Below are positions 21,654 through 46,423 of a DNA stretch of 64,000 nucleotides, piece after piece. Below the pieces are notes generated by a model. That model made no database searches, was not told where the DNA came from, and saw only the letters and a program-made list of their open reading frames with translations. Position 1 is the first letter of the stretch, and every line of letters begins with the position of its first letter. Position numbers and translations under genes: made by a program. Source of the DNA: Alphaproteobacteria bacterium (GTDB lineage: Bacteria; Pseudomonadota; Alphaproteobacteria; UBA9219); contig JAQVBU010000008.1 in assembly GCA_028690155.1 (NCBI GenBank), positions 7,593 through 71,592 of the forward strand, in the 5' to 3' direction.

Positions 21654-22274
21654 CTATTCGCTTAATGCGGCTTGATTATCAGCCGGATAAACCGCGTCGA
21701 TTGCATCCGTGATTTCTACGAATTTCTCCGTGTCAGCGATGCAGCGAATGGAGGTAATAAGCGCCTTTAGCCTCTCGGCCTCGGCCTTGAGAGCAGACAT
21801 CGGGTGCTTGGGACAGCTCTCGATATGTAGCTTGAGCGCGTCAGCCATGCTGACCGGCGTCGTTTCGCCCGGTCCGTAGCGATGACCGCAGTAGACACAG
21901 TTGACGTACATGCCAGACTGCAGATCATTTACCCAGCGCTTGTAGCGTTCGACTTCATTCAACGCCGTTAACGTTCTCATTCGCCATTGGGAACGACTAT
22001 CGAGATAGATAACTTCGGACTTTCGCAGCCGCTCGACCTCAACGCGGAGGGCGGTGTGGTCATCCAAGTCGCGCTCCAGCGCCTCTGCCTGTTCCATTGT
22101 GAGCTTGATTTTTGTCGCCGGCCTGACCGGGATGCAGTCGGGGCAATGCTCAACCAAATCGAAGTGCTCTGGGGAATGACAGTCGCATTTGATCGGCAGC
22201 CGAAAATACGTCCGCACTAAAGTGCCCTCCTTCCCGCATACTTCACAGCGTCCGAAATTACACTCACCATTCAT
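21654..22274 (-). CDS. hypothetical Cys-rich protein
   Basis: 206-aa ORF; CEVCGKEG and CPDC motifs. Confidence 0.3.
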   Translation of the reverse strand: MNGECNFGRCEVCGKEGTLVRTYFRLPIKCDCHSPEHFDLVEHCPDCIPVRPATKIKLTMEQAEALERDLDDHTALRVEVERLRKSEVIYLDSRSQWRMRTLTALNEVERYKRWVNDLQSGMYVNCVYCGHRYGPGETTPVSMADALKLHIESCPKHPMSALKAEAERLKALITSIRCIADTEKFVEITDAIDAVYPADNQAALSE

Positions 22275-23173
22275 AGTAATACCGTCCTCCTTATATCGTT
22301 TGCCTTTGTCGCTACAATCTCAGGTCGCAACCATTCTCTTTGGAATCTGCGCCATTCCAAGCTGTAGGCTCCGCTCTCGTTCCTGTACAGCATTGCATAG
22401 GGCATGAACCCCGCCCTGATGATGTCGGTCAGTCGTTTTTCAGCCCGCTCGAACGTGTCCCCTTGGTACCCGATTAGGCAATAGCAACATAAGACATGTG
22501 CCTCAAAAGTAAACCCAGCGTCCCGAAGTATCCGTCCTGCTTTAAAAAGAGGGTCGCGATCATCAGGCGTATCGTACGCGAAGTACATTCGTCGAGGATG
22601 GAGGGCGTGCAGCGCTTCTGCTTGCCAAGGTTTTAGGAATTCCGCTTCAAGCCCACCCGTGAAAATTGGACGTTCTGATTGCCGAGCCAGCATCTCGAAA
22701 ACCGCTCGAATGTGGGTGTCTGAGCAAGCAAGAAGGTTGTCGTCAAGCACGTTCGAGCCGTCCACAATCGGATACTCCCGTGTCTTTCCCTCTCGCCTCG
22801 GCACTCCGCAGTACCAGCAATTCTTCGGACACCCGCGACTTGTAATCACCGCGCCCGGTTTGAGATACTGGCCGGAAATGAATTCGCCACCCGGCTTGTT
22901 GAATGCCGGTCCGCCCAGTTTGACCGGTACGCCTACAGCCCGCCATGCTTCTGCAAGCTGTTCCGCGCGTGCCATATCCCACGAAAACGTTACCGACACA
23001 TGCACCTCGTCGATTTCCGGCAATGCCAGCAGCGGCGGCGGGCAATTCACAAACGCCAAGTGATCGGTCGGAGTTAACCGGGTGCGTGAAGGAAATACGC
23101 GGGCAATGGTCATTGAGTTCACATCCTTAATCCCCGTCCCATACGCCATCCGGGCGCATCTGCGCAAGTGCAA
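22271..23173 (-). CDS. radical SAM domain protein
   Basis: CPKNCWYC (CX3CX2C) followed by a GGE-like IFTGGLE segment. True start uncertain, possibly 23113. Confidence 0.5.
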   Translation of the reverse strand: MHLRRCARMAYGTGIKDVNSMTIARVFPSRTRLTPTDHLAFVNCPPPLLALPEIDEVHVSVTFSWDMARAEQLAEAWRAVGVPVKLGGPAFNKPGGEFISGQYLKPGAVITSRGCPKNCWYCGVPRREGKTREYPIVDGSNVLDDNLLACSDTHIRAVFEMLARQSERPIFTGGLEAEFLKPWQAEALHALHPRRMYFAYDTPDDRDPLFKAGRILRDAGFTFEAHVLCCYCLIGYQGDTFERAEKRLTDIIRAGFMPYAMLYRNESGAYSLEWRRFQREWLRPEIVATKANDIRRTVLL

Positions 23174-23483
23174 GGAGCTGATTTAGTGAGCGCTTTGCAT
23201 TGCCCTCCGTATCCTCCCAGTAGTTGTCGGATACATCGTCTCCGAGCTGGGCTATCCCGGCCTTGAGGACGGAGATGCTTTCCGCTCCGGTCATCCCATA
23301 GATCGTTCTAATGCCCTCGTTGCCGAAGATGCGGCGGAATAACTTCCCGTAATTGTAGGTGATGTTCAGCCATGCTTCCGTGGTGCCGTCCACGGCGTAA
23401 GTTCCTCCGCGCATTGCGTGCGGAGAATCAAGCATGATCGTTTCCTTGGTGACGGGGTTGCGCAGGGAGATGTCGTAGCTCAT
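23127..23483 (-). CDS. hypothetical phage protein
   Basis: 118-aa ORF. Confidence 0.3.
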   Translation of the reverse strand: MSYDISLRNPVTKETIMLDSPHAMRGGTYAVDGTTEAWLNITYNYGKLFRRIFGNEGIRTIYGMTGAESISVLKAGIAQLGDDVSDNYWEDTEGNAKRSLNQLLALAQMRPDGVWDGD

Positions 23484-24067
23484 GTTCTCCTTCTTTCCCG
23501 GCAGTTTGCCCCCTCGGCGGTGCTGCCGCAGTGATTCCAGTCATCCCATTGGTAGTTGAATCCATCCAGCGCGTACGGATTCTTGATTTTGTTGTTGCAC
23601 CGATCCATTACGGTTTGATAACTCATATGGTTCTGCGCTGCCGCCTCTCTTGCCGACCGATAGACCTCCGCAACCTCTCCGCTCTCAAAAATCTTTGCAA
23701 CGGGACGCCGCCTCGATTTATGCCCGGTCATTTCCCCAAGCTCTCTCGGGGTAATGAATCCAATATTCGCGGCTCGATTGTCCGTTGTGTCTCCGTTGAT
23801 GTGGTAGGCAACCATTCCGGGTGGCCGACCGCCCTTCCAAACGTCCACTACGATGTTTACAAGTGGGACCTCGCGCGCCCTGCCATTTTGATCTGTGAGC
23901 TTCACGAAAACGCGGTTGCTTCGGCGTCCCTTGCCCCGAGGTTGTCTTTTGTAGGGCGTAAGCAGTCTGGATGAAGGAAGCCTACCCCAGCAGCTTCGAT
24001 AACTTCTTACCTCGCCCAATCTACTGACCTCGTAGAAACCGCCGTACCCTGCAATCATGCGCCACTC
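23480..24067 (-). CDS. HNH homing endonuclease (NUMOD4 + HNH_3)
   Basis: MEWRMIAGYGGFYEVSRLGEVRS (NUMOD4) and AYHINGDTTDNRAANIGFITPRE (HNH). Confidence 0.65.
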   Translation of the reverse strand, partial: EWRMIAGYGGFYEVSRLGEVRSYRSCWGRLPSSRLLTPYKRQPRGKGRRSNRVFVKLTDQNGRAREVPLVNIVVDVWKGGRPPGMVAYHINGDTTDNRAANIGFITPRELGEMTGHKSRRRPVAKIFESGEVAEVYRSAREAAAQNHMSYQTVMDRCNNKIKNPYALDGFNYQWDDWNHCGSTAEGANCRERRRT

Positions 24068-24137
24068 CATAGCAACCGGAATCCTCCTTTCTTCGTAGGT
24101 CGAGATCGCCGGGCCGTAGTTTGATCCCCGGAGCCCC

Positions 24138-24554
24138 TTATAGCCCGTCGTCGCAAGCCCCACCCTCCAGCACGTTTTTTAGCGCATAGATAATGGTGTA
24201 GTCAAGGATGCTGATTTTTTTGGGATCGTGCTCCTGTCTGAATTTCAGCTTCATCATTTCGCTGCGAAGCGCGGCTTGTACCTTGATCCGCTCAAGCGGA
24301 TTCTCCATGTCCATCTCTCCGGCCTCGAGCAGAAGCTTGTTCTCTTGCAGCTTTTCCAGCGCCGCCTCCAATTCGGCTCGGATTCGGATGATGTCCTCCG
24401 GCATCAAGCCGGTGTCCTCGTAGGCGGCGAGGCGTTCCGGCGCAAATCCAGTAATAGTTTCGTCTTTCGTAAACGGATCGTTGTAATTGAAATGATTCGC
24501 GCCGATTCTGGCGAGTCCAAATTCTCCCGGATCGCGGTATGTCAGCCTATCCAT
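24138..24554 (-). CDS. hypothetical protein; shares the LAAYEDTGLMPEDI motif with the 59297 gene
   Basis: Start at Met 26. The motif also occurs at 59297-60466. Confidence 0.3.
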   Translation of the reverse strand: MDRLTYRDPGEFGLARIGANHFNYNDPFTKDETITGFAPERLAAYEDTGLMPEDIIRIRAELEAALEKLQENKLLLEAGEMDMENPLERIKVQAALRSEMMKLKFRQEHDPKKISILDYTIIYALKNVLEGGACDDGL

Positions 24555-24912
24555 CTTTCCGTTCCTCCCGCAAAAGATCGTTTTGAGTTCCACAATAGGC
24601 ATCGTCTGTAATAAACGGCAGACCGTCAATTTCTGCGCTATTCCCGTTGGCGCACTTCATTCCCCGCGTTACTCCGAACAGACGGCAGACCATAGGGCGC
24701 ACGGGGTAAATAGAGCATCGCTTTAGCTCGTTGTCTCGAAAGATGCACTCCATAGGCTCGTGCGCCCGACGCATTATTTCACGGGGAAGGGCGTGCGCTT
24801 GGATGTAATTCTCAATCCGGGCGATGTCCGACGCCGTTACAGGAACTAGTCCGCAGCATCCCCCGCAGTTGGTGCAACGTGTATGAGGTGGTATGTAAAG
24901 CAGGGCGTTCAT
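24547..24912 (-). CDS. YkgJ-family Fe-S/zinc cluster protein (CxxCxxCC)
   Basis: CTNCGGCCG motif characteristic of the UPF0153/YkgJ family. Confidence 0.5.
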   Translation of the reverse strand: MNALLYIPPHTRCTNCGGCCGLVPVTASDIARIENYIQAHALPREIMRRAHEPMECIFRDNELKRCSIYPVRPMVCRLFGVTRGMKCANGNSAEIDGLPFITDDAYCGTQNDLLREERKDG

Positions 24913-25286
24913 TTTGATGCCTCCGCCGTTGAAAGCATAGATGCAGCGGCTTTCTCTGCTTCGCAGTATGGGCACTTCCCATTCATCCAGCCTTCCCGAT
25001 AAGTGCGGAAGCACCTCTTGCAACGCATGGCGCCGTGTTCGCCCTCTGCGATCTGTTCCAAGTACCCCCTAAGATTTCCGGCCTCGTACATAAATGTGTG
25101 CTGCCCATGTAGGGCGGCATAGAGATCGTCGGCGAGTTGCTTGACTTCCTCGCGGGATACGAGGATCGTATGATTTGTTCTTGCGCGACTTCCCGCGACC
25201 ACCCATCCAGCCCTAGGCAGCCCGTTGAATTTCATTTTCAGCGCAAACGCGGCATCCAACTTGCTTCTGGCATTGGTATCAATCAT
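24909..25286 (-). CDS. hypothetical protein
   Basis: 125-aa ORF; C-terminal CKRC...CPYC zinc ribbon. Confidence 0.3.
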   Translation of the reverse strand: MIDTNARSKLDAAFALKMKFNGLPRAGWVVAGSRARTNHTILVSREEVKQLADDLYAALHGQHTFMYEAGNLRGYLEQIAEGEHGAMRCKRCFRTYREGWMNGKCPYCEAEKAAASMLSTAEASK

Positions 25287-25346
25287 GTTTCTCCCTCCTC
25301 CTTTCCGGTTTCGATGCTCAGTGTTTCTTTATGCTTCTTACCGAGG

Positions 25347-27305
25347 TCACATCTGACCGACACCGAGCAGGAGTTGTTGATTGTGGGCCACAAGATAGTA
25401 ATCGGCATTCTCCATGATTCGCTCATACTGCTCCTTCCCTTGAAAACTATCAACAACCTCGCGTTCTTCCGGGGTCATCTGCTCATACCGCGCTTTCCCG
25501 TAATTCGGGGGGAGCCAGTTCCGGCCGCGCGCAGCGTAGATATTGAGTAGGTCAACCATGCGCTGATCGTGGAAGGAGATGTGGCATGTTCCCTTCTTGA
25601 AGAATGTCGCGTTGAAATACTTGAAGGCGATGTTCCGCGTCTGCCCTGCTGCATTGGCCGTCTTGAGAACTACGTGCATATCGCTCTCCGCTGTAACTCC
25701 CTGGTCCAAGTAGTCAAGGGATTTTTCGATATCTCCAAGCACGCCGTATATCGTGTACTCTGCGAGTTTCTCACCTTGCCAAGAATCAGAATGGCTGCCG
25801 TGGATGGGGATAATGACTTTCTTACCGATCTTGTGCGCCTTATTTGTCGCCCATCCGCTGTAGTAGTGGATGTTGTTCTTTGTCTCCGGCCACCATGAGT
25901 GGGCGGCAGTCATCTTCTCAAACACGTCCATGATTGCCTTATCAATGCCTGTTCGCAGCGAGCCATCCAGTTTTCCGATGATCTGGCGGATGTTGAATTC
26001 CGAGAATTCGTAATCCTCCATTTTACCGATGCTGGATTGATACTCTTTCATCAGGTCGCTTGTGAACTTGCTTGTGAGTTGCGGCAGGTGAAAAAGATTG
26101 TCCCAGTACTTTCCACGCACGGCGCGCATATAGCGGTTTACGCCTTCGTTGTCAATCGTGTCGTAGGATTGATCTCCGATCTTTATGGAGAGCAGTGCGT
26201 GTGCGTAAGACTGGCTGCCTGTCAGGATATACGGCACCAGGCCATTGTACTCACTCATAAACTCAAGTGTCGCGGACACCTCCACGCCGTAGTTGGTTAT
26301 CATCTGCTCAATGAAGTTGCCCCCGACAAGCTCGTGCTTGGAATCCGCCTGCACCGTTTGTTCTGTCGCTTTCTTCATGCGCTCGAATATGCTGGAATCA
26401 AACTCGCGCATCGGAATGTGGACAGACACGATTGCGACCTCCACATCGGAGCGGCGTTCCGCCCGGAGGAAAGCGCCCTTGATGAATTGAATCCGTGCGC
26501 CCAACTTTGTGAGACGGTCGAACAAATGCTTGCGTCTGACTGTATGCGGGTTGCGCAGCGTTTCGGCGTTCAGCAGGCAGACGATCTGGCCTCCGTCTTG
26601 CTGGATTTCGAGTGCCTTTTCCAAATGCCGGTCACCATCAGAGAAGGGCGGGTTCATCACGATCAAGTCGTATCGTTTTTGCGTGTGATACGTCAGGAAG
26701 TCGTCGTGGACAACGCGGTATCCCTTTCCGGTGAGTATGTAACGCAGATTTTGATCCATTTCGATGCAGTCGATGTCTTCAAGATTGCGGGAATAACGCT
26801 GGCGCTTATAGGTCGCGCTTCCCATACACTCAAGTAAGTCACCTTTTCCGGCTGACGGCTCGAGTACTGAACGCACTACCTTCCAGTCAACCATAGCCAT
26901 CATCTTTCCGGCCAGCGCAGAGGGGGTCGGGTAGAAGTCGGAATTGTCTCCGCTGGGCAGCATGGCCGGATCGTACTTTTGCTTCTCCGGTTTTGCGTTT
27001 TCTTTCCATTTTTTGAACACCCCGGTTTTCGCTGCATATAGAGTATCGAAGCTCCCAGCGTGTTCCCCGCGCTCATCCCCGTTCCTTTCGTAATACCTCG
27101 CAGAATACGGATGTGTATTCCATAAATCGACTTTATTCATGTCAATCCTACCAATCCGATTGCCGCGGTAATTTACATGAATGAAGCGCTGTAGCGATAG
27201 GCCTCGTTTCGACTTTGTCTGGATAACTTCGACTTCGATGCTTGGATGCTTGATGTCAAAAGTCTTTCCACTGCGCTCTTGGGTGTTTATCCTCAACGCA
27301 TTCAA
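25347..27305 (-). CDS. N6-adenine DNA methyltransferase (gamma class, TaqI-like) with a ~350 aa C-terminal extension
   Basis: FYPTPSALAGKMM (motif X), VLEPSAGKGDLLE (motif I), IVMNPPF (motif IV). Confidence 0.7.
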   Translation of the reverse strand: MNALRINTQERSGKTFDIKHPSIEVEVIQTKSKRGLSLQRFIHVNYRGNRIGRIDMNKVDLWNTHPYSARYYERNGDERGEHAGSFDTLYAAKTGVFKKWKENAKPEKQKYDPAMLPSGDNSDFYPTPSALAGKMMAMVDWKVVRSVLEPSAGKGDLLECMGSATYKRQRYSRNLEDIDCIEMDQNLRYILTGKGYRVVHDDFLTYHTQKRYDLIVMNPPFSDGDRHLEKALEIQQDGGQIVCLLNAETLRNPHTVRRKHLFDRLTKLGARIQFIKGAFLRAERRSDVEVAIVSVHIPMREFDSSIFERMKKATEQTVQADSKHELVGGNFIEQMITNYGVEVSATLEFMSEYNGLVPYILTGSQSYAHALLSIKIGDQSYDTIDNEGVNRYMRAVRGKYWDNLFHLPQLTSKFTSDLMKEYQSSIGKMEDYEFSEFNIRQIIGKLDGSLRTGIDKAIMDVFEKMTAAHSWWPETKNNIHYYSGWATNKAHKIGKKVIIPIHGSHSDSWQGEKLAEYTIYGVLGDIEKSLDYLDQGVTAESDMHVVLKTANAAGQTRNIAFKYFNATFFKKGTCHISFHDQRMVDLLNIYAARGRNWLPPNYGKARYEQMTPEEREVVDSFQGKEQYERIMENADYYLVAHNQQLLLGVGQM

Positions 27306-27332
27306 TGTCTCTACACTCCTTTGAATTTTCCC

Positions 27333-28223
27333 TTAGAAGATCAGGCTGCCTGGATCGTCCCACCGGCTATAAAGCTTACAGTTTGGCCGGAGTATCACAT
27401 ACTTGTACGAGTCCGAAACATCCTGAGCCATGCAGTCATCGTCAATGACGGTGGACATCCCGAGAATCGAATACTTTACGCGTCCGTACTCAAGCCTTTC
27501 GAGCGCGCGCCCTTCTTCCTTGACGTACTCGATCAGTTGCGATTCGGTCTTATCGGCAATCGAATGCTTGCGAATCCATTCAGCCTGTTCCGTTTCGCCG
27601 TCCCCGGTATACAGGATTCGGAGCGTTACTTGGTCAGCGCCGAGAAGCCTGCAATATGTAAAGAACTTCTCGGGCTTGTTGCTGTATCCGTTGAACTGAT
27701 CGGTGAGATTCACGGAAAGCCTCAGGTTGAAGTCGTATTTTTTGATCGCCTGACACAAGCTTTCAAGACAAACTTGGTGTTTATCAGGGGTTCCGATAAT
27801 CTCGTTGTTCGACCCGTTATCAAACGACGAAATCGAAACACTGATCGTACTCACCCCTACATGGTTTCGCAAAAACCGAAGATACGGGTCGTTGAGCATG
27901 ACACCCGTAGTCTGCATCTCAATCCACCGAAACGGTGAAGGGAGATTTTTGTTCATCGTACCGAACCGCTGCAAGAAGGACCTATTTTGTTGCGGCTCGC
28001 TGTCGCCCGTGAGCATGACCGTGTTGCAGCCATTGTCCCGGGCGAATTCCAACCGGCGAACATAGTCCGCTTCATATAGGTCGTAGAACGGGAGCTTCTC
28101 GTCAAGCATGTTCGGATACTCGTCGTGGCGCATTCTCGAAACGCAGAATTGGCATTTGTTGATGCAGCCGCTGCTCGGTACGACAATCGACAGGCTCTGA
28201 ATCTTCACGGTCGCACCTCCCAC
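27333..28223 (-). CDS. radical SAM protein
   Basis: GCINKCQFCVS CX3CX2C motif near the N-terminus; LTGDSEP as a GGE-like motif. Confidence 0.55.
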   Translation of the reverse strand: MGGATVKIQSLSIVVPSSGCINKCQFCVSRMRHDEYPNMLDEKLPFYDLYEADYVRRLEFARDNGCNTVMLTGDSEPQQNRSFLQRFGTMNKNLPSPFRWIEMQTTGVMLNDPYLRFLRNHVGVSTISVSISSFDNGSNNEIIGTPDKHQVCLESLCQAIKKYDFNLRLSVNLTDQFNGYSNKPEKFFTYCRLLGADQVTLRILYTGDGETEQAEWIRKHSIADKTESQLIEYVKEEGRALERLEYGRVKYSILGMSTVIDDDCMAQDVSDSYKYVILRPNCKLYSRWDDPGSLIF

Positions 28224-28981
28224 GGATATTCTTGCTTGAAATCAGACCCCATCAAATCACGGATAGAGGACTTCATAAAGACCGCGACCTTTTTTTCGGC
28301 GCAAGCTTCAACGATCTCGTCAATCCACCACTTCTCCGGAACGACTTTATTCTTCCGCGGCCCGGTTTCGGCTCCAACGATCACCCATTCCGGCCAATAT
28401 TCGGTTTCCATCTCCCCGAACGGTTCTAGGATAGGTTCGATGCTGACGAATCCGTGGTATGGCGTATCCCTGAACCATGTGAAGTTGTCGTCCGGCGATG
28501 TGAGTGTAGAGCCGAACCAAAAGTTGTCGGCATAAGGGAGCGCTTTGGCTGAGTACAGTTCCCGAATGCGCATCGGGTTCTTTGTCAAAAACAGATACCG
28601 ATGCCACGGTGCCGCGGCGCACGCGGTGAAAACATCCTGAATCCACTCGTCAGGAACCCACGAACCGAACAAATCTGTCATTGAGCCGACGAAGATGGTG
28701 CGCGGCTCGGACCACTTCGCAGGGATTCCGAGGCGGTAGCGATGGAAGGTCGGCGCAAATCCAAACGGGTAATGGTTGATACGCCCGCGCGCGATTTCCC
28801 CGCACTCGGTTCCCGTGACCAGATCCCGGTATGGTTCGTCCAGCTCGCGCAAATCATCGTCCATCGTGGCTTTGCCGAACCGATTTACATGCCTCCGCGC
28901 GTAGCAGTATTCGCAGCCGTGGAGACAGCCCGTGACAGGGTTCCATGAACTGTCACACCAGTCAATCTTCGTTTTATACAT
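28205..28981 (-). CDS. phage Gp37/Gp68 family protein (DUF5131), three-Cys motif
   Basis: IDWCDSSWNPVTGCLHGCEYCYA matches the hallmark TWNPVTGC..GC.YCYA N-terminus. Confidence 0.65.
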   Translation of the reverse strand: MYKTKIDWCDSSWNPVTGCLHGCEYCYARRHVNRFGKATMDDDLRELDEPYRDLVTGTECGEIARGRINHYPFGFAPTFHRYRLGIPAKWSEPRTIFVGSMTDLFGSWVPDEWIQDVFTACAAAPWHRYLFLTKNPMRIRELYSAKALPYADNFWFGSTLTSPDDNFTWFRDTPYHGFVSIEPILEPFGEMETEYWPEWVIVGAETGPRKNKVVPEKWWIDEIVEACAEKKVAVFMKSSIRDLMGSDFKQEYPWEVRP

Positions 28982-29243
28982 CTTGCACCTCCATAGGAAT
29001 CATTTTCTCGTAGTACGCAGCGTTCTTGCGTTCGATTGGAATATCGGATTCGTAATACTTGATGAATGATTCAAATTCTTTGTAGCACTCGCAGCACAGA
29101 AATTGGTTGAGTACAGGTACGAGATAGCCACGAAACGGCCGCTGGCTGCATGTGTCGCACATGCCGGGGCTTCTCAACAACGTCAGTTCCACGCGATCGA
29201 CCTCGTAGGCAAGGTACCCGGAGTTCCCGACGAGTTTTTTCAT
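28974..29243 (-). CDS. hypothetical zinc-binding protein
   Basis: CDTC...CCECY. Confidence 0.3.
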   Translation of the reverse strand: MKKLVGNSGYLAYEVDRVELTLLRSPGMCDTCSQRPFRGYLVPVLNQFLCCECYKEFESFIKYYESDIPIERKNAAYYEKMIPMEVQDV

Positions 29244-29246
29244 GCG

Positions 29247-29570
29247 TTATTCCTCCCTGTGGATACTTCGATCCGCATCGAAACCATGAGGGTATCGCTT
29301 CCAGAGCTTGTCGAGGTTCGATTGGGCGATTTCATCCAGGGTTAGCCCGAGCCCCGTAGCAATCTCGGCCGCGTACCAGAGGACGTCTCCGAGTTCCTCG
29401 GCCATGTGCTTCTTATCCAGATCGTGCCCCTGATACAGGTGCTTCTTGAGCAGGTCTGCGCATTCACCTGTCTCGCCGCTCAGGCCGAGGATTCCGTTCC
29501 TGATCTTCTCTGCCGCGCTCGATGTGTTGCTCGTTCGCTGCGCAAACTTCTGATACTCCGTGAAATTCAT
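29247..29570 (-). CDS. MazG-like nucleotide pyrophosphohydrolase
   Basis: EYQKFAQRT...LGLSGETGECADLLKK...ELGDVLWYAAEIA matches the MazG/NTP-PPase helix pair. Confidence 0.65.
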   Translation of the reverse strand: MNFTEYQKFAQRTSNTSSAAEKIRNGILGLSGETGECADLLKKHLYQGHDLDKKHMAEELGDVLWYAAEIATGLGLTLDEIAQSNLDKLWKRYPHGFDADRSIHREE

Positions 29571-29575
29571 GCTTG

Positions 29576-29776
29576 TTACTCCTTGTACTGACACCCGCAA
29601 AGCGGGCAGAATTTCGCCGTGGGGAAATTGTGCTTGTTTACCGCATAGGCGGCCTCGCCGCACTTGCACCCGTTCTCTCTGTCGCGCTTTTCCTTCAACG
29701 CTTGCCAAACGAGATCGCAGAACGGCTTGCTTCCGTCGCCGTCATAGAAAACCATCGCCCTTTCAACGTCCTTCAT
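29576..29776 (-). CDS. small zinc-finger protein
   Basis: CKCGEA...CPLCGC. Confidence 0.3.
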   Translation of the reverse strand: MKDVERAMVFYDGDGSKPFCDLVWQALKEKRDRENGCKCGEAAYAVNKHNFPTAKFCPLCGCQYKE

Positions 29777-30246
29777 GCCGACACCCTCCCGTCTTGCTGT
29801 TTGGATCTTTTGGCTGCCCGGTCATACATTACGATGCTTCCGGCGACCGCGACGTTATAGCAATGATCGCCGAGTATTTGAACCACATCTTTGCAGCGCG
29901 CGAGCACCTTCTGGGGGATGCCGTTATCCTCTGCACCGAGAAGGTAAATGCACCGATCCAGATGCCCGTAGCCCTCAAGCGGAATCGAGCGCTCGTCGAG
30001 CTCGACCGCAACAATTGGGCAGCCGCTCGGGATGTGCTCGATGAAGTCATCCCACGTCGGGTAGTTGAAAAGCGGGATGTGCTTCGGTGCTTTTGCGGTA
30101 TCGGAGCATTGATGCGAATACCTCCTACCAACCGTGAAAATGAAACTCGCGCCTAGTATCGAAGCGCTTCTCCAAAGCGTGCCGATGTTCTGCTCGGTTT
30201 TCCCATTGAAAATACCAATCCCGAAGTATCCTCTACCGCTATCCAT
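29773..30246 (-). CDS. SpoU/TrmL-like RNA 2'-O-methyltransferase (SPOUT class)
   Basis: NIGTLWRSASILGA (motif 1), YLLGAEDNGIP (motif 2), NVAVAGSIVMYD (motif 3); about 157 aa like TrmL. Confidence 0.6.
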   Translation of the reverse strand: MDSGRGYFGIGIFNGKTEQNIGTLWRSASILGASFIFTVGRRYSHQCSDTAKAPKHIPLFNYPTWDDFIEHIPSGCPIVAVELDERSIPLEGYGHLDRCIYLLGAEDNGIPQKVLARCKDVVQILGDHCYNVAVAGSIVMYDRAAKRSKQQDGRVSA

Positions 30247-30445
30247 GTGCCTGCCCCCTTTGCATGGCATCCGAATCCGTCTCCGGCGCCCGAACGATGA
30301 TCCCGAGTTCCTCCGCGAGTTTGTACTGGTTAAGCTCCATGAGGCATCGCAGTATGAACTCCGCGCTGCGGCTCATTGGCTTTGTGCCTCCGTGGCTTGA
30401 TGCCAAGCGGTCGATTACGGCTTCGAGCGCAGTCCTGCTAATCAT
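30239..30445 (-). CDS. hypothetical protein
   Basis: 68-aa ORF. Confidence 0.25.
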   Translation of the reverse strand: MISRTALEAVIDRLASSHGGTKPMSRSAEFILRCLMELNQYKLAEELGIIVRAPETDSDAMQRGQAHG

Positions 30446-31335
30446 CAGTCAGCCCCCAGCATCTTTTTCATGTCGGAGAAGCGCTTCTCCGCTTCTTCGC
30501 ATCTCCACGACGGACCGCGGAACTCAATCGGGAAACAGACCTCAAATATCCTGTCGTAGATGCGCATGTACCGGATGTCGCCACAATTCTGCATCGTCGC
30601 AAGGTTCATGTTCGTTGTGAGGATCATCGGCAATCGCGCTCGGTATCGGCTATCGACGATGTTGTAAACCTTTTCTATCGCAGTGTCTGTGCTGCGCTCC
30701 GCTCCCAAATCATCAATAATGAGTAGTTTCGCACGATTGATTCGTTTGATGATCGTTTCCTCATCCTCGTCGTTGGAACCATATTGCTTGATCGTCGATA
30801 ACAGCTTCACGAAGGACGTCATGACGACAGGCACTTGTCGATCAAGCAGATAGTTCGCAATACACGCGGCAGCAAACGTCTTCCCGGTTCCAGGCGCCCC
30901 GTAAAGGAGCAACCCCTGGTTGTTGGAAGCCATTTCATCGAATCGTTCCGAGTATCGCTTGGTAAACTTGAGGACGCGCTGATTGTGTTCTGTCGGCGTA
31001 AAGGCATCAAATGTACTCTCTCGAAACTTCTCGTCGATCAAACTGGCCTTTCGCAGCTTCTCAACGCGTTCCATGTCCTCCTTGTTCTTCTTGATGCGCT
31101 GTTCTTCCTCAATCGCCTTCTCGCGGCACTTGCACGTGCAATACACGGTCACAATTCCGTTGTCTCCCAGCTCCGGGAGATGCATGTTGATTCTGGTTTG
31201 CTTTCGCGTGTGGCAATTCCCGCAGTAAATCAAACCATCTTCGCCTGTATAGTCGCCTTCATTATGACTTTCTGCGAATTTTGAGAAAGCCTCGATCACT
31301 GTCTTTTTGAAACCTACGTTACGCATGCTTTCCAT
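30445..31335 (-). CDS. DnaC/IstB-like helicase loader ATPase
   Basis: Walker A LLLYGAPGTGKTFAA; Walker B LLIIDDLGAE; N-terminal zinc ribbon. Confidence 0.75.
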   Translation of the reverse strand: MESMRNVGFKKTVIEAFSKFAESHNEGDYTGEDGLIYCGNCHTRKQTRINMHLPELGDNGIVTVYCTCKCREKAIEEEQRIKKNKEDMERVEKLRKASLIDEKFRESTFDAFTPTEHNQRVLKFTKRYSERFDEMASNNQGLLLYGAPGTGKTFAAACIANYLLDRQVPVVMTSFVKLLSTIKQYGSNDEDEETIIKRINRAKLLIIDDLGAERSTDTAIEKVYNIVDSRYRARLPMILTTNMNLATMQNCGDIRYMRIYDRIFEVCFPIEFRGPSWRCEEAEKRFSDMKKMLGAD

Positions 31336-31346: not shown

Positions 31347-32225
31347 CTACGGCCGGCGCGAGAACGGATTCACATCGTCATCGAGCGGCGGGGTGGGCAC
31401 GTACTGATTGCGATCTCTGACAACACCCTGCGAACCGCCCCGATTCTGATCTCTTGCAAGCCACGAGTTGATAAATCTCTTAATTCCGCTCCGCGTTTTT
31501 CTGCGTGTTGGGTTGCCGTCAAGCCATCCCGCCATGCTACGCAAAGCCTGTAGCATATTCACAGCCGGATATAGCTGCGTATACTTGTCCACTTCCAGCT
31601 GTGAAACGTCGTATGTAGTCCCGTCGTTCAATATCAAGGAAATTACCACAGGGCTTTCCGGTGCTTCCGGCGTGGAGGTGCTTGGCAACTCCGCGCGACT
31701 TCTTTGTTTCCTTTTCTTTCCTTTTATCTCATCTACTTTGGTTTTGGCATCATCTTCGGGGAGAACATCGCCATCTTCGGGGAGAACATCGCCATCTTCG
31801 GATACAAAAACCAATCCTTGGGATTCTTTCGCGCCCAAGAGCCAGTATTTGTGTATCACGGATTTACAGGAACGTTTCTGTATTGCGTCAACGTATCTCC
31901 GCTGGATGCCTCTACTCGTCAGCACACCATCCTCCTCGAACGGCCTGTCGTGAAACAGCCCAATCCGCAAGCATGTGGCGACCGTCTGCTTAACGGTCTC
32001 GGACCCAATACCACCGCCCATTCGACGCGCAGTCGTGGCCGCATTGGCATAGCTCCAACGGTAGAAATATCCCTCGGACCCGTAAGCCCTTTGGCAAAGG
32101 TAGAAGTAGATCGAGAAGCCTATCCATCCCTGAGCGTCAATCAGCTCGTCGATCTTGGTGTCGTTTTCAAAGATGTCAACGTTCCATCCGGCATAACTGA
32201 TGCCCCTTTTCGGCTTGCCGGCCAT
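31347..32225 (-). CDS. phage replisome organiser / DnaD-like replication initiation protein
   Basis: N-terminal replisome-organiser-like region (WIGFSIYFYLCQRAYG). Internal VLPEDGD tandem repeat. Positioned upstream of the DnaC-like gene. Confidence 0.55.
   Translation of the reverse strand: MAGKPKRGISYAGWNVDIFENDTKIDELIDAQGWIGFSIYFYLCQRAYGSEGYFYRWSYANAATTARRMGGGIGSETVKQTVATCLRIGLFHDRPFEEDGVLTSRGIQRRYVDAIQKRSCKSVIHKYWLLGAKESQGLVFVSEDGDVLPEDGDVLPEDDAKTKVDEIKGKKRKQRSRAELPSTSTPEAPESPVVISLILNDGTTYDVSQLEVDKYTQLYPAVNMLQALRSMAGWLDGNPTRRKTRSGIKRFINSWLARDQNRGGSQGVVRDRNQYVPTPPLDDDVNPFSRRP
31750..31799. repeat. tandem 21-bp direct repeat (about 2.4 copies) inside the replisome organiser gene
   Basis: catcttcggggagaacatcgc repeated twice, followed by a partial third copy. 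Confidence 0.7.
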
Positions 32226-32995: not shown

Positions 32996-35900
32996 CTACT
33001 CCAGACTAGCGTGGCTACCGCCCTCGTCCTTGAATACATAGATGGCTTGCGGAAACCTTGCTGACATTTCTTTGTCGTGCGTGATAATCATGACTTTCTT
33101 GTCCGGATAACGGCCTTGGATGTTCTCTACAGCTTCGCAGTACGATTGAACGCCTTGACTATCTAAAAATGGAGGTTCGTCAATGGCGATGAATCCAATC
33201 TGCACGCCAGCATCGGCGCTCTTGACCTCAGCGAGTGCCAGGATAACGGAGAGTGCAACCTTGACGCGCTCGCCGCCGCTACGCGACAGGTACGGGAGCC
33301 TTCCGGTATCTGCGTCGGAGATGATGATGTCGAGCGTAACGACCTCCTTTTTGTTGTTGGATTTCATCACCTTCTCGGTGACGAGCTCGACGGACATCTT
33401 GCCGCCCGTCATCTGACCAAGGATGTTTGAGGCCGTCGCCTCGAGCAGCGGAACGACAGACCGAACGATGGAGTGCGGAATGCCGTTGTTACTGAAAGCG
33501 CGCTTTAGGGCGTCGCAGAACGCGGCAATCCGGCTCTCGGCAGCTATCTCCGTGGACAGGGACAGCATGTCCGTAGCTATCTGCTCGGCTTGCAGGAGGT
33601 CGTTTGCGAGTCCACCCTTGACGGCCATATGCCGATCTCGCTCGCCGTTGAGCGCGGATATCTGGTCGGAGAGCGCGGAAACGGATTGCCTCACTTGGTC
33701 GATTCCCGTGGAAAGAACCAGCTCGCCGGCGAGGCGCTCCTTCTTGTCGATTGCTTGTTTGTCGAGATCATCCACATCGGCCTGAATCTCCTTGATCCTG
33801 GCGGACGTTGACGCAAGACGCTCTTTGGCGATAAGCAAGCCCCTCTCGCGCTCGATGTAATGAGCGGATGCGGTGACCTCATCGCTCGCCTTGCTACACG
33901 CCGCGACAATCCCGCTCATCGGGATCAGCTTCGTTTCGATGGCCACCTGATCCGCGTTCAGTGTCGCGGATTTTTCTATGAGGGCAGTGATCTGGATGTC
34001 GAACTGTTCAATGCTCCGCCGCCGTTCCTCCAATTCGCCGCGTAGCTTCTCAAGCCCGAGATACGCCGTTGCGCTTGCGGCGAGGGCTTGCCGAGATGCC
34101 TCGAGGCGAGTGATCGCATCATCTGGCACGGCAGCCGCGTCTCGGGTGGCGCGCAGAGCGGAGATATTCACTTCTCCATCAGCGACAACCTTCTTCGCTT
34201 GCTCTGTCTTGTTTTCATGCTCGCGGACTGCCGGCTCAATCTGTGACTGCGCCTCGACCGCATCTTTCAAGAACTTGCATGTCGCTGATTCCAGAACAGG
34301 ACAACCGCTGTCAATCAGCAGGGACGCGCGACGCTGCAGGTCGGCGATCTGGGTTCTGCGGAGGGTGAAGGCGGCGCGGTATTCTTGGCGCACGGCTTCG
34401 AGCTTGTGCGATGCTTCGGATAACGCCTTGTCCGCCTCACGATAGGCGTCCCGCTTTGCATGGGCCGCCTTGATCTCGTCCCCAAGTCGCTGATATTCCT
34501 CGTGCTTTGCGCGAAGGTCAGCCTCCATGCTGAGCGTAGAGGACACGCGTTCGGCGTTCAAAACGGCTTGCTCCCGCAGTCCCTTTACGAAACGCGCGGT
34601 GTCCCCGGCGTCCTTGAGCGCAGCTTTCGTGTTCGCCAAATTGGAGAGCAGCGCGTCGTGTTCAGCCTTCTTCTTGAGCAGCGCGTCTCGGGCCGCCACG
34701 GCAGAATGATAACGTTCTACGCCGTCCATGATCTCGCGCTCCGACGAAACGACACCCTTTGCGCTGTCGAAGGCTGCCCGATGCTGGTCGAGTGATAACC
34801 GGAGGGACCTGCCCTTCGTGGCAATGGCATCAATCTCTACGGCAAGCGCATCGGCGCGCTTCTTCGCGGACTCGAGATTTCCAAGCGCAAGGCTTGATTC
34901 TTCGAGTTGCTTGCGTGTAGATTCGATGCTCGCGTCGAGCGCAGTTATCGAGCTGTCCTCGACGGCAATCTTCGCCTTCACATTGTCAACATCCGGCATG
35001 CGCGCCGAGAGATCGTCCTTTCGGACCTGTAGCTGGCGTACCAAGCGGTTTGCATCGGCCGACTTTTCCGTAGCGACATCCTCCATCTCGTCGTAGATAC
35101 CGAGCCCGAGGATGTCGGAGAGGATTTTCATGCGGCTCTCCTTGTCCGCTTGGAGGAACAGGCCGTATTGATCTTGCATGATAAGGGCGCAGGCGCGCAG
35201 CGTCATGCCGTCCATGCCGATTGTGCGTTCGATCTCGGTTTGGGTATCGCGCAGTTTCTCGCGGCTCCGGTCAACCCATTGGCCGTCCACGTATTCAGAC
35301 AGGTTGAGCGTTGCCTTGCCGGACTTGACACGCGTTCGAGCGACTCGAAAGACCTTCTCGCCAACGCGGAAAGTGAACTTAATGGCACCCGACTTCACGC
35401 GCTCGTCGTTGCAGATCCATCCGGTCAAATCGCCTTCGCGCGGTTCCTCGAAAAGCGCGTCATAGATGGCGTCCATGAATAAGCTCGACTTGCCGACGCC
35501 GTTCTGCCCGTTTACGGTGCAGAAACGAACATCATCGAAGCTGAATGTCTCCTGCCTGTAATTGCGATAATTGGTCACGTCGATCTCTACGGGTACAAAC
35601 AAGCCGTGCGGCTTCGTGGCGCGTCCCTTCGCCATTACGACATCAATAATCTCGCGGGCAAGGGGCATCATCGCCTCGATGTCCTCCAGATCGGTGCCGT
35701 TTTCGAGGAGATATGTCCGGAGGTTGGTTTCCGGATCATTCTCGCTGGACATGGCTTTCTTGCTGACGGTAATGGTGATCTTCTCCGGGGTGATCTCCTG
35801 AACCCAGAACGCGCCGTTGTCGTACAGGTATCTCTCCATCTGCGCACGGTTGAATCCTCGGTTGGCTTCGTCCGTGCAGTTGTAGAGCACGCGGACGATT

Positions 35901-36820
35901 GCTCCGTCCACGTCGTAGAACGGCAGCATCCCGGAGAGGTTGAAATCCTCCACGTCGCGCCCGTCGAGGCGAATCGTTTTGAATTTCCGCGCGGGAAGTT
36001 CATGCATATCACTGGTGACGCCATCCGGCACCAGGTCATGCACATAAAAGCCGCGCGGCTGGTTCTCGTCATTGAAATTGAAAGCGTTCACGGCACCGGA
36101 ATAGAAGGTGTGGCCGCCCAAATCCTGTGGGCGGTGGATGTGTCCAAACAAGCATAGGTCGTAATTCGCAACTTCAAGCGCGCGCCGGCTGACGACAGGC
36201 TCGAATTGCGAGAACATCATGGTCTGCCCGGATTCAGTATTACAACCATCGACGGTGTAGTGGCCGACGAGCACGCATGGGATGCTTCTTTCGCACATGG
36301 CGCGCATGCCCACGACCATCTTATCGAGGTTCTCCGAAAGCTCAACGTTCTCGTTTTCGCGGTCGATGCCGGGGTTGTGAGCGCGCCAATACCCCCGGTC
36401 GAATCCGGGTAGCGCGCAGACACATACCGTTTCGCCGGAGCGCGTGGCAATCATATGCGAACCTGGCTCGGTAAGTATGTGAACATCAGGATTGCCGGAA
36501 AAGAACTGTTTCAGCATGTCGAAGTGCTTTGCCCCGTCATGATTCGGCGTACCGCGCAGTACTATTACGGGCGCAATTTTTGCAAGGGCGGCAATGCGCG
36601 TCGCGGCGATTTCCACCTCATGTATTCCTCGATCGCTCCATGTCCGGGCGGCGTGAAACACGTCGCCCGCGACAACGGACAGGTCGATATTGAGCGCGCC
36701 GGCGCGGTCGATCAGCGTGTCGATGCACCGGAGTGTATCAAGAGCACGCGCGTTTTGCCCGTCTTGCGTGGGGCCGGGAAAATCGCCGATATGCCAGTCG
36801 GCTGAATGCAATAACCTCAT
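32996..36820 (-). CDS. sbcDC: fused SbcD(Mre11)-SbcC(Rad50) nuclease/ATPase, single 1275-aa polypeptide
   Basis: N-terminus: DWHIGD, AGDVFHA, NHDG, GHIH phosphoesterase motifs. Middle/C-terminus: Walker A NGQNGVGKSS, long coiled coils, signature LSRSGGERVKVALS, Walker B IAIDEPPFLD, H-loop IITHD. ATG at 36820 preceded by GGAGG. Confidence 0.75.
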   Translation of the reverse strand: MRLLHSADWHIGDFPGPTQDGQNARALDTLRCIDTLIDRAGALNIDLSVVAGDVFHAARTWSDRGIHEVEIAATRIAALAKIAPVIVLRGTPNHDGAKHFDMLKQFFSGNPDVHILTEPGSHMIATRSGETVCVCALPGFDRGYWRAHNPGIDRENENVELSENLDKMVVGMRAMCERSIPCVLVGHYTVDGCNTESGQTMMFSQFEPVVSRRALEVANYDLCLFGHIHRPQDLGGHTFYSGAVNAFNFNDENQPRGFYVHDLVPDGVTSDMHELPARKFKTIRLDGRDVEDFNLSGMLPFYDVDGAIVRVLYNCTDEANRGFNRAQMERYLYDNGAFWVQEITPEKITITVSKKAMSSENDPETNLRTYLLENGTDLEDIEAMMPLAREIIDVVMAKGRATKPHGLFVPVEIDVTNYRNYRQETFSFDDVRFCTVNGQNGVGKSSLFMDAIYDALFEEPREGDLTGWICNDERVKSGAIKFTFRVGEKVFRVARTRVKSGKATLNLSEYVDGQWVDRSREKLRDTQTEIERTIGMDGMTLRACALIMQDQYGLFLQADKESRMKILSDILGLGIYDEMEDVATEKSADANRLVRQLQVRKDDLSARMPDVDNVKAKIAVEDSSITALDASIESTRKQLEESSLALGNLESAKKRADALAVEIDAIATKGRSLRLSLDQHRAAFDSAKGVVSSEREIMDGVERYHSAVAARDALLKKKAEHDALLSNLANTKAALKDAGDTARFVKGLREQAVLNAERVSSTLSMEADLRAKHEEYQRLGDEIKAAHAKRDAYREADKALSEASHKLEAVRQEYRAAFTLRRTQIADLQRRASLLIDSGCPVLESATCKFLKDAVEAQSQIEPAVREHENKTEQAKKVVADGEVNISALRATRDAAAVPDDAITRLEASRQALAASATAYLGLEKLRGELEERRRSIEQFDIQITALIEKSATLNADQVAIETKLIPMSGIVAACSKASDEVTASAHYIERERGLLIAKERLASTSARIKEIQADVDDLDKQAIDKKERLAGELVLSTGIDQVRQSVSALSDQISALNGERDRHMAVKGGLANDLLQAEQIATDMLSLSTEIAAESRIAAFCDALKRAFSNNGIPHSIVRSVVPLLEATASNILGQMTGGKMSVELVTEKVMKSNNKKEVVTLDIIISDADTGRLPYLSRSGGERVKVALSVILALAEVKSADAGVQIGFIAIDEPPFLDSQGVQSYCEAVENIQGRYPDKKVMIITHDKEMSARFPQAIYVFKDEGGSHASLE

Positions 36821-37332
36821 TTTAATGCCTCCTTCGCGTAAGTCCACGTAAACCCGCCAGCGCTCTTCCGTTTTCCCTTGCAGCACTTGCAGATGTCTTC
36901 CTCGGATACTCGGTTGCTGAGCGACGCCTCCTTGATACTCCCATACGTGGCGATCCTTGCTCCTTCGTAGTACTGCTTAACCATGCGGGGCATGTTTGCT
37001 GGTGGCGCCGACGTGAGTCCAGTTCTCCATGCGTGATCGGCATTCTCCCTGTGTGAAACCCACTCAAGGTTTTCGACTGAATTATCGGACTTATCTCCGT
37101 TCTTGTGATTCACCTCGCGTTTGTTTTCAGGATTCGGAATGAATGCCTCCGCTACTATTCGGTGTCTACGCATCTGCAAACGACGGCCATTTTTGCATAG
37201 AGCATCTTGAACATATCCTTGAGAGCGGCTATTTTCTCCGAGCACTTTATTACTCCTGACGTTCCTCAAGCGCCCTTCTGAGCTAACTTCGTACACTCCT
37301 TCGTATCCATTCACAGGCTTCCAATATTCCAT
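36817..37332 (-). CDS. HNH homing endonuclease (NUMOD4 + HNH_3)
   Basis: WKPVNGYEGVYEVSSEGRLRN and RHRIVAEAFIPNPENKREVNHKNGDKSDNSVENLE. Confidence 0.7.
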   Translation of the reverse strand: MEYWKPVNGYEGVYEVSSEGRLRNVRSNKVLGENSRSQGYVQDALCKNGRRLQMRRHRIVAEAFIPNPENKREVNHKNGDKSDNSVENLEWVSHRENADHAWRTGLTSAPPANMPRMVKQYYEGARIATYGSIKEASLSNRVSEEDICKCCKGKRKSAGGFTWTYAKEALK

Positions 37333-42873: not shown

Positions 42874-43314
42874 ATGGCAATATTCGGTGAACGGCTTGTG
42901 GCGGCAAGGAAAGAGGCTGGCCTAACGCAATACCTGCTGGCTGAAAAACTCCAGCTCCCGCGTTCCACGATTTCTGGCTACGAAACGGAAGGGAAAGAGG
43001 CACCATATGCGATGCTGGCTCGCATTGCGACCCTGCTCGGCGTCACCACGGACTACCTTACGGGCAAGAGTGACAAACGGACAACTGCCGTCGAAACGGT
43101 TGTCATGGGGGAACTATCCAATCTACAGCGCGCGTACGACGCTGCCCGCCCTGCGGTACGATCCGCAGTTGCCGCAATGCTCGGAGATGTCTATGCAATC
43201 ATGGCTGAGGCGCTCGATAGCGAAAGCCCGGATAAACTAGCCGCCTGTGCCGAGTTTCTGTCGGCGGCGCGGCGCATGTATGCGCCGATGACCGGTGATG
43301 GACATGGCAAGTGA
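42874..43314 (+). CDS. cI-like repressor (XRE HTH)
   Basis: ATG at 42874 after GGAGG. LTQYLLAEKLQLPRSTISGYE HTH. Immediately upstream of the integrase. Confidence 0.6.
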   Translation: MAIFGERLVAARKEAGLTQYLLAEKLQLPRSTISGYETEGKEAPYAMLARIATLLGVTTDYLTGKSDKRTTAVETVVMGELSNLQRAYDAARPAVRSAVAAMLGDVYAIMAEALDSESPDKLAACAEFLSAARRMYAPMTGDGHGK

Positions 43315-46325: not shown

Positions 46326-46423
46326 AAGCCCGAATGGGCTTTTACCAAGGATCATATCGCTTCCCCAGAAAGGAGGTGACTGGTATCTCTGAACAACTTC
46401 CAATCGGCGTTGACCTCGGCGAA

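Follow-up and report, generated by a model that had tools for sequence, protein, structure and literature searches.

Radical S-adenosylmethionine (SAM) enzymes are known parts of thymidine hypermodification pathways (PMC5889632, PMC8989533), and NCBIfam defines 'radical SAM mobile pair protein A' as one of two paired radical SAM genes on mobile elements. Viperin, another radical SAM enzyme, acts on nucleoside triphosphates (NTPs), according to work cited in a preprint. Here, we analyse a 64,000-nucleotide stretch of DNA (the window; assembly GCA_028690155.1, contig JAQVBU010000008.1, positions 7,593 to 71,592) in which an interval at 22271-30246, on the minus strand of a phage-like contig and between its replication and packaging modules, carries three radical-SAM-type genes, hereafter rSAM1, rSAM2 and DUF5131, among methyltransferases and other small enzymes. 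A preliminary description had proposed this interval as one linked nucleic-acid hypermodification island. We find that the gene set is not a conserved unit, and the interval is probably not one pathway but a mosaic of accessory genes independent of one another.

All of the genes listed in the preliminary description are present where it had placed them, on the minus strand, and Pfam and PHROG scans reproduce every one of its domain calls. The interval, with its small open reading frames (ORFs), reads as follows:

22271-23173 (probable ATG start 23113), minus strand: rSAM1, radical SAM protein of 280 aa, identical to database protein P0121
23127-23483, minus strand: 118-aa ORF, no family match; one homologue near rSAM1 in L026
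23480-24163, minus strand: NUMOD4 + HNH_3 homing-type endonuclease, probably a mobile insertion
24138-24629, minus strand: 163-aa ORF with uncertain start; no Pfam match, weak match to phrog_38832 (unknown function; 3.5e-05)
24547-24912, minus strand: CxxCxxCC (YkgJ/FliB-type) putative Zn/Fe-binding protein, 121 aa, CTNCGGCC; PF03692 at 45.1 bits (cutoff 23)
24909-25286, minus strand: 125-aa ORF, no family match
25347-27305, minus strand: predicted orphan gamma-class N6-adenine DNA methyltransferase; DUF4942 at 105 bits
27333-28223 (database start 28208), minus strand: rSAM2, viperin/MoaA-like radical SAM protein of 291 aa, P0001
28205-28981, minus strand: DUF5131 (Gp37/Gp68) radical-SAM-like protein; PF07505 at 153.5 bits (cutoff 28.9), full-length
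28974-29243, minus strand: 89-aa Cys-rich ORF, no match in the Pfam scan
29247-29570, minus strand: MazG-type NTP pyrophosphohydrolase, 107 aa; PF03819 at 45.7 bits (cutoff 22), phrog_229
29576-29776, minus strand: 66-aa ORF, no match in the Pfam scan
29773-30246, minus strand: minimal SPOUT (SpoU/TrmH-like) RNA 2'-O-methyltransferase, 157 aa; PF00588 at 65.8 bits (cutoff 29.7)

The cysteine motifs also lie where they had been reported: CPKNCWYC in rSAM1 (aa 95-102, window 22808-22831), CINKCQFC in rSAM2 (aa 15-22, window 28143-28166) and CLHGCEYC in DUF5131, while the 'GGE-like' motif of rSAM1 reads GGLE (aa 153-156, window 22646-22657). In the methyltransferase, motif I (EPSAGKGD, aa 149-156) comes before NPPF (aa 218-221), which is the gamma order, and the extra domain noted earlier is DUF4942 (aa 393-595), so that the protein is a predicted N6-adenine DNA methyltransferase with a C-terminal extra domain. 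Three radical-SAM-type genes within 8 kb are not a chance motif match, and on their own they are no proof of functional linkage either.

Linkage was assessed by a census of loci drawn from IMG/VR, one genome per GTDB species, JGI/ENA metagenomes and a 153-billion-gene index. Every island protein was searched by tblastn and by iterated hidden Markov models (HMMs), and each locus included up to 5-10 kb on either side of the anchor. The anchors were 97 rSAM1, 104 rSAM2 and 37 DUF5131 loci, with 80 loci of the Lin1244 replication protein as controls, and the families found near each were:

104 rSAM2 loci: rSAM1 1 (distant, L241), DUF5131 2, DUF4942 methyltransferase 4, CxxCxxCC 1, MazG 0, SpoU 0, PAPS-reductase-like 1, C5 methyltransferase 1
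97 rSAM1 loci: rSAM2 0, DUF5131 14, DUF4942 methyltransferase 2, CxxCxxCC 1, MazG 1, SpoU 0, PAPS-reductase-like 21, C5 methyltransferase 21
37 DUF5131 loci: rSAM1 4, rSAM2 0, DUF4942 methyltransferase 0, CxxCxxCC 1, MazG 1, SpoU 0, PAPS-reductase-like 3, C5 methyltransferase 7
80 Lin1244 control loci: rSAM1 1, rSAM2 0, DUF5131 4, DUF4942 methyltransferase 0, CxxCxxCC 0, MazG 0, SpoU 0, PAPS-reductase-like 6, C5 methyltransferase 6

The two radical SAM genes rSAM1 and rSAM2 thus co-occur once in 201 anchored loci, the one case being a distant rSAM1-like gene in L241, and SpoU, MazG and CxxCxxCC proteins almost never accompany either of them. Pfam censuses of immediate neighbours, which are independent of the census HMMs, agree that there is no conserved linkage. 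L241 is also the nearest relative of the region (rSAM2 at 69% identity); there, the DUF4942 methyltransferase is directly followed by the CxxCxxCC gene and rSAM2 comes some 5 kb later, an order unlike that of the window, with homologues of the window's 206-, 122- and 408-aa ORFs after rSAM2. No DUF5131, MazG or SpoU gene was found in the 17 kb of L241 available. Together, the census and L241 demonstrate that the set is not a conserved unit, and the conserved-cluster test failed.

The claim of one linked gene set is thereby lost. The preliminary description had named beforehand two findings, on linkage and on nucleosides, on which its reading should be given up, and the one on linkage was essentially made: the three radical SAM genes belong to unrelated families without conserved linkage. 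The subfamily placement it had proposed assigns rSAM1 to the cobalamin-methylase/methylthiotransferase class, rSAM2 to a viperin/MoaA-like group and DUF5131 to the spore photoproduct lyase megacluster. What survives is the general flavour of nucleic-acid modification, carried by the N6-adenine methyltransferase, the TrmH-like protein, MazG and DUF5131, and not a single hypermodification pathway. Since these accessory genes travel separately in other phages and bacteria, the interval is better read as a patchwork.

Several observations weigh against this reading. The census covered flanks of 5-10 kb, so more distant genes of the same genome went uncounted, and the MazG, SpoU and CxxCxxCC HMMs, built from one or few sequences, may miss divergent members. 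Compared with control loci, rSAM1 loci contain DUF5131 more often (14% versus 5%, a modest p=0.047) and PAPS-like and C5 methyltransferase genes each more often (22% versus 7.5%, a modest p=0.011), all p-values being uncorrected and the loci not phylogenetically independent. DUF5131 abuts rSAM2 in L294 as it does in the window, and the tight packing and start/stop overlaps of the interval also fit co-translation of partners. Finally, no truly close relative of the phage was found in the collections searched, the replication organiser reaching at most 48-53% identity in IMG/VR, and synteny is therefore testable at long range only.

On the mosaic reading, the block would consist of independently acquired accessory genes gathered in one long minus-strand early or middle transcript. 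Domain identities, folds and co-occurrence counts are observed, and from them we infer the following substrates and roles. The orphan N6-adenine methyltransferase, with DUF4942 as its recognition domain, would methylate phage DNA against host restriction, and the putative metal-binding CxxCxxCC protein stays beside it in the nearest relative. In rSAM1, the auxiliary-cluster cysteines and the greater part of the cofactor domain seen in its class appear to have been lost, and the enzyme may belong to a loose guild of mobile-element genes that also takes in DUF5131, PAPS-reductase-like proteins and four classes of DNA methyltransferase; its target would be DNA, or a DNA-modification or anti-restriction step. 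DUF5131, a probable relative of spore photoproduct lyase, lies beside rSAM1 in a minority of elements, in either order, and may work with it. rSAM2 would be a stand-alone viperin/MoaA-like enzyme acting on a nucleotide. The remaining functions look self-contained: a MazG NTP pyrophosphohydrolase, a minimal TrmH-like RNA 2'-O-methyltransferase and a homing HNH endonuclease.

The first alternative concerns rSAM1 and DUF5131. Pfam Radical_SAM matches rSAM1 under its cutoff, and phrog_9298 matches it at 1e-18. The AlphaFold model (predicted local distance difference test score, pLDDT, 90) contains the partial TIM barrel of the radical SAM fold and superimposes best on TsrM, MgmA, CysS, TokK, AprD4, RimO and MiaB, over 236-250 residues that include an N-terminal Rossmann-like domain. 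In the model this domain is a remnant, about 90 aa long, that consists of four strands and a single helix; residues 1-90 of homologue alignment A1 contain no conserved Cys, so a MiaB-type auxiliary cluster is absent. The motif cysteines are near-invariant, with the middle Cys missing in 1 of 36 sequences; those of rSAM2 and DUF5131 are invariant or nearly so across homologues. Single-sequence searches of solved structures returned noise only for each of the three proteins.

More than 7,000 rSAM1 homologues, at 60-77% identity and nearly all labelled 'hypothetical', occur in the protein collection. Their carriers are prophages and phage contigs, for the most part from Clostridia; the family is also present in Bacteroidales, Synergistales, Treponema and Dehalococcoidia, which we take to be largely anaerobic lineages. 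Among 50,697 phage records, tblastn with rSAM1 gave five weak matches (23-29% identity). Of the 150 proteins encoded within two genes of rSAM1 in the non-redundant loci, 10 are DNA methyltransferases, from four classes, four are DUF5131 and three PAPS_reduct proteins; some neighbours (Relaxase, DUF3849, DUF4316) mark conjugative elements. In the census, PAPS-like and C5 methyltransferase genes tie as the commonest families near rSAM1, the former often immediately adjacent, and the C5 methyltransferase family is a frequent neighbour of both rSAM1 and DUF5131 elsewhere. The window's DUF5131 protein matches 'radical SAM mobile pair protein A' at 5e-27 as well as the PADLOC candidate-defence components PDC-M41B and PDC-M30B, and in the RadicalSAM.org classification the family shares its megacluster with spore photoproduct lyase, a DNA-repair enzyme. 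No functional study was found in the literature on DUF5131, TcmP or Gp37/Gp68.

From these contexts one might propose a hidden sub-module, in which rSAM1 and DUF5131 would serve mobile elements of anaerobes as a radical-based system for DNA modification or anti-restriction, often joined by a PAPS-like ATP-pyrophosphatase and a DNA methyltransferase; in this phage, rSAM2, the methyltransferase and the HNH gene would have inserted between the partners. Its best hint is the adjacency or overlap of rSAM1 and DUF5131 in at least five loci and in both gene orders (L021, L126, L150, L173, L121/L124), to which the mobile-pair match, the shared megacluster, the methyltransferase-dominated neighbourhood of rSAM1 and the enrichments over control loci may be added. 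However, DUF5131 is missing within 10 kb of about 85% of the rSAM1 loci, as is rSAM1 within 6 kb of about 90% of the DUF5131 loci; the p-values, uncorrected, are modest; a preference of all these genes for one genome region may explain the association; and the 'mobile pair protein B' model did not pick up rSAM1 at E<0.01. We therefore regard the sub-module as a tentative proposal with the odds against it. A stricter version, in which DUF5131 requires an adjacent radical SAM partner, was rejected: a CxxxCxxC scan around 36 DUF5131 loci gave three matches, one genuine (L228) and two chance matches in Cys-rich proteins, with genes overlapping DUF5131 left out of the scan, so that the overlapping rSAM1 of L214 went uncounted.

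The second alternative turns on rSAM2, which scores 34.4 bits against Pfam Radical_SAM (cutoff 29.5) and whose start and the DUF5131 stop share 4 nt. Its structure model contains the partial TIM-barrel radical SAM fold and the viperin fold including the C-terminal extension, and fold comparison ranks viperin best (19.3), before GDGT-MAS (18.3) and MoaA (third, 18.1). When the family profile was compared with the PDB, the top four matches were all viperins (E ~0.002). Similarly, in a PADLOC scan of 5,027 models pVip was the only recurrent family, matched by 20 of 38 rSAM2 members at E<=1 (best 3.3e-4), with the window protein itself matching weakly (E=0.012). NCBIfam (E<0.01) gave MoaA and PqqE only, both sub-threshold, with MoaA slightly better and no viperin-named model; against MoaA TIGR02666 the score is 24.6 bits, for a cutoff of 284. 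Alignment A2 shows two conserved C-terminal Cys only (C259, C277).

Homologues of rSAM2 number more than 2,200 in the protein collection, at 57-73% identity, and tblastn against the 50,697 phage records hit two, both of one 735-kb uncultured phage. The gene stands alone in Clostridia chromosomes among unrelated neighbours, and some bacterial copies adjoin a type I restriction-modification system, a HigBA toxin-antitoxin pair or an Arr gene. In jumbo phages of 300-410 kb, rSAM2 lies directly beside an RtcB RNA ligase (L010, L011, L014 and L015, of about 410 kb; L013, L016), and in L003 it is two genes from a T4 Rnl1-type RNA ligase; these RNA ligases make a tRNA-repair context, not a DNA-modification one.

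A further set of contexts involves the salvage of nicotinamide adenine dinucleotide (NAD). One cluster (L242:661-7373) comprises a PncA-like isochorismatase, a PRPP-synthetase-like phosphoribosyltransferase (PRT), NAMPT/NAPRTase, rSAM2 and NadE; a similar cluster lies at L032:9748-18969, the rSAM2 homologue having 67-77% identity in these two, and the PRT + NAMPT pair of both resembles the phage NARP1 pair. In L005, NAPRTase is two genes from rSAM2. On a 248-kb viral contig (L009:8188-13178), rSAM2 has a PnuC-like transporter on one side and a NadR-like (AAA_28) gene with NUDIX on the other; the NARP3 NAD-rebuilding pair, described recently, likewise consists of PnuC and NadR. No NAD family around rSAM2 recurs in 33 non-redundant metagenome loci, and we therefore keep a dedicated NAD-salvage role, despite its striking contexts, as a lead only. 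L242 also encodes a 731-aa protein that, judging from its HVPFCKSRCKFCEY motif, may be a fusion of HemN/HemW-like radical SAM, NUDIX and NrtR winged-helix domains; as an rSAM2 paralogue it was rejected, BLAST finding the cluster motif alone in common.

It could accordingly be argued that rSAM2 is a viperin-like nucleotide-modifying enzyme for counter-defence or phage exclusion, possibly acting with MazG and grouping with auxiliary genes of NAD salvage and tRNA repair. The profile, fold and pVip matches point this way, as do the NAD-salvage and RNA-ligase neighbours and the bacterial copies beside restriction-modification, HigBA and Arr genes. On the other hand, the viperin sequence matches are all weak, NCBIfam favours MoaA, the NAD families do not recur among the metagenome loci, and MazG is near rSAM2 in no other locus. 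We consider this proposal rather improbable as it stands. It is similarly doubtful, though worth naming, that either the smaller rSAM1-DUF5131 module or a viperin-like rSAM2 hides new chemistry. In the former case, rSAM1, DUF5131 and a PAPS-reductase-like protein may jointly install a radical-dependent DNA modification, as yet unknown, and such a system would be common among the phages and conjugative elements that strict anaerobes carry; in the latter, rSAM2 may be a phage-borne viperin-like enzyme making a modified nucleotide for counter-defence or competition between phages. Such chemistry, if present, would have gone unseen so far, the hosts being anaerobes that are not in culture.

As for described pathways, the preliminary description was right that none fits. 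In NCBIfam and Pfam scans of the island proteins and 30 other window ORFs, we found no FolE, QueD, QueE, QueC or DpdA/TGT of the 7-deazaguanine pathway, no dUMP hydroxymethylase, 5-HMUDK kinase or aGPT-Pplase of thymidine hypermodification, and no DndA, DndD or DndE of Dnd/Ssp phosphorothioation, the PAPS_reduct-like gene at 8374-9564 standing alone. That the whole block 22271-30246 is one new DNA or RNA hypermodification pathway, with MazG supplying or sanitising a precursor and the radical enzymes and methyltransferases building the base, is very unlikely: its parts are all real, tightly packed on one strand with stop/start overlaps, unexplained by any known pathway and include the kind of radical SAM enzyme known from thymidine hypermodification (PMC5889632, PMC8989533), but the set is conserved nowhere, rSAM1 and rSAM2 meet in that one distant case, SpoU accompanies neither enzyme and MazG is present in 1 of the 201 loci, L241 lacks DUF5131, MazG and SpoU over its available length, rSAM2 is a stand-alone gene in bacterial chromosomes, and no base-precursor enzyme (dUMP/dCMP hydroxymethylase, kinase, glycosyl or amino-acid transferase, TGT/DpdA) was detected among the scanned ORFs.

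The MazG protein is of the phrog_229 type common in phages. The closest solved relative of the SpoU protein is the tRNA Gm18 methyltransferase TrmH, and TrmH-like RNA methyltransferases are rare in phages (3 of 50,697 records). As listed, the 163-aa ORF and the CxxCxxCC gene overlap at the 3' end of the latter. For SpoU, MazG and CxxCxxCC, the same coordinates were called on an independent assembly of this sequence (L031). DUF5131 is flanked by the 89-aa ORF and rSAM2. Homologues of the NUMOD4/HNH gene adjoin rSAM1 in L024 and L025. Homing-endonuclease traffic may have split former neighbours.

The interval is part of a minus-strand gene run covering about 1-41 kb of the window. In transcription order, an SbcC/SbcD fusion is followed by the Lin1244/DnaD-like and DnaC/IstB-like proteins, a 68-aa ORF, SpoU, the 66-aa ORF, MazG, the 89-aa ORF, DUF5131, rSAM2, the N6-methyltransferase with DUF4942, the 125-aa ORF, CxxCxxCC, the 163-aa ORF, NUMOD4/HNH, the 118-aa ORF and rSAM1. 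Downstream of rSAM1, also on the minus strand, come RecU, ParB_N and PAPS-reductase-like genes, the small terminase, portal, MuF and the XkdF protease. The features located outside the interval are:

6990-7811, minus strand: small terminase gene
7856-8377, minus strand: ParB_N protein, overlapping the PAPS-reductase-like gene; both directly upstream of the small terminase gene
8374-9564, minus strand: PAPS-reductase-like protein, 13 kb from the flagged interval
30445-31335, minus strand: DnaC/IstB-like ATPase
31347-32225, minus strand: Lin1244/DnaD-like protein
32996-36886, minus strand: SbcC/SbcD fusion, a single 1,296-aa ORF with SbcD-like nuclease and SbcC-like ATPase
36817-37332, minus strand: NUMOD4/HNH-type paralogue in the same transcription unit
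43295-44551: tyrosine integrase
46251-46326, 47606-47681 and 49740-49850, plus strand, just downstream of the integrase: tRNA-Gly(TCC), tRNA-Val (unusual anticodon AAC) and a 111-nt tRNA-like match
47990-49600, plus strand: DUF2828/DUF7788 protein, also present in the 410-kb jumbo phages named above
49955-51061, plus strand: DnaN sliding clamp, after DUF2828/DUF7788 and before the C5 methyltransferase
51136-52074, plus strand: C5 cytosine DNA methyltransferase

With the N6-adenine and C5 enzymes, the phage has at least two DNA methyltransferases. The three tRNA matches could be phage-borne tRNAs or an attachment-site region. Homologues of the SbcC/SbcD fusion, at 36-58% identity, occur in IMG/VR contigs L050-L052, where DUF5131 is present too, about 5 kb downstream. 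GGAGG-type ribosome-binding sites precede most interval genes, and scans with Rfam and for promoters and terminators found no internal RNA elements or signals in the interval and no excess of promoter/terminator matches inside 19-33.5 kb. Overall GC content and GC at third codon positions (GC3) of the interval genes are like those of the remainder of the phage, which ruled out recent horizontal acquisition of the block.

The source contig (94.9 kb) was binned into an Alphaproteobacteria metagenome-assembled genome. Its Firmicute-type content (RecU, Lin1244, XkdF and strong GGAGG ribosome-binding sites) and the placement of its nearest homologues in Clostridia (Limiplasma, Ventricola, Eubacteriales) point to a mis-binned Firmicute phage; gene content thus indicates a phage of Clostridia, not of Alphaproteobacteria, with an anaerobic Firmicute as its probable host and a probably temperate lifestyle. 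Megablast of the 8.5-kb block against the 50,697 phage records gave no match, and an IMG/VR search with the DnaC-like protein found nothing; the Lin1244 protein retrieved 80 IMG/VR loci, the best at 48-53% identity, and the island was in none of the 80.

The failure of the single-pathway reading averts a false lead. What the interval does bring forward is two large radical SAM families of mobile elements that have no known function, are nearly absent from cultured phages and have essentially no members among the 50,697 deposited phage genomes: rSAM1, tied by context to DNA methyltransferases, PAPS-reductase-like genes and DUF5131, and rSAM2, the nearest thing to a phage-carried viperin, jumbo phages included. 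A new modification of nucleic acids or nucleotides, with a bearing on the conflict between phages and host defences in anaerobic communities such as those of the gut, the rumen and digesters, could come to light through either family.

The G-C-P-x-x-C-x-x-C context aligns RimO and MgmA, of the cobalamin radical SAM methylases and methylthiotransferases, with rSAM1. rSAM1 differs from TsrM, MgmA, TokK, CysS, MiaB and RimO in being only 280 aa long, with its N-terminal domain cut to about 90 aa. Cobalamin-dependent (class B) methylases have a B12-binding domain, whereas rSAM1 has no Pfam B12-binding match although its fold superimposes on TsrM and MgmA; MiaB and RimO have the three-Cys UPF0004 domain and TRAM, whereas rSAM1 lacks conserved N-terminal Cys and ends right after its core, with neither a TRAM match nor any other C-terminal substrate domain. 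On its model, rSAM1 is thus assigned to the structural class of cobalamin methylases and methylthiotransferases, yet as a member of neither family. DUF5131 has the family and three-Cys motif of the DUF5131/TcmP systems, but its neighbour is rSAM2 rather than a TcmP-like gene, and NCBIfam found no TcmP match among 10 island proteins; as in the mobile-pair A/B arrangement, it is paired in some elements with another radical SAM gene, rSAM1.

Like viperin and pVip, rSAM2 is a single-domain radical SAM protein of about 290 aa with an N-terminal CxxxCxxC, but its identity to them is a mere 15% or so, and it scores below the cutoff of every curated viperin or MoaA model. Viperins have an N-x-H stretch before the cluster motif, unlike the SLSIVVPS of rSAM2. 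MoaA, which acts on a nucleoside triphosphate, has a second C-terminal [4Fe-4S] cluster, and rSAM2 shows neither this feature nor an equivalog score. Furthermore, the rSAM2 family is found in lytic-type phage operons and ordinary chromosomal contexts more than in defence islands. The nearest known kind for rSAM2 would be the NTP-acting viperin/MoaA group, of which it is at most a candidate member.

At the level of the whole block, the 7-deazaguanine, 5-hydroxymethyldeoxyuridine (5-hmdU) and Dnd/Ssp pathways each have a radical SAM or PP-loop/PAPS-reductase-type enzyme, as the window does, and known hypermodification pathways often include MazG-like or dUTPase-like hydrolases and methyltransferases, as here, but their defining enzymes went undetected among the scanned ORFs. 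Closer is the likeness to the accessory blocks of ordinary phage early regions, which share the position between replication and packaging genes, the tight one-strand packing, the gene content that varies between relatives, and the orphan methyltransferase, phrog_229 MazG and NUMOD4/HNH genes. The block differs from these in its three Fe-S (iron-sulfur) radical enzymes within 8 kb and its rare TrmH-like RNA methyltransferase; it is an ordinary variable accessory region of a phage, unusually rich in uncharacterised radical SAM families.

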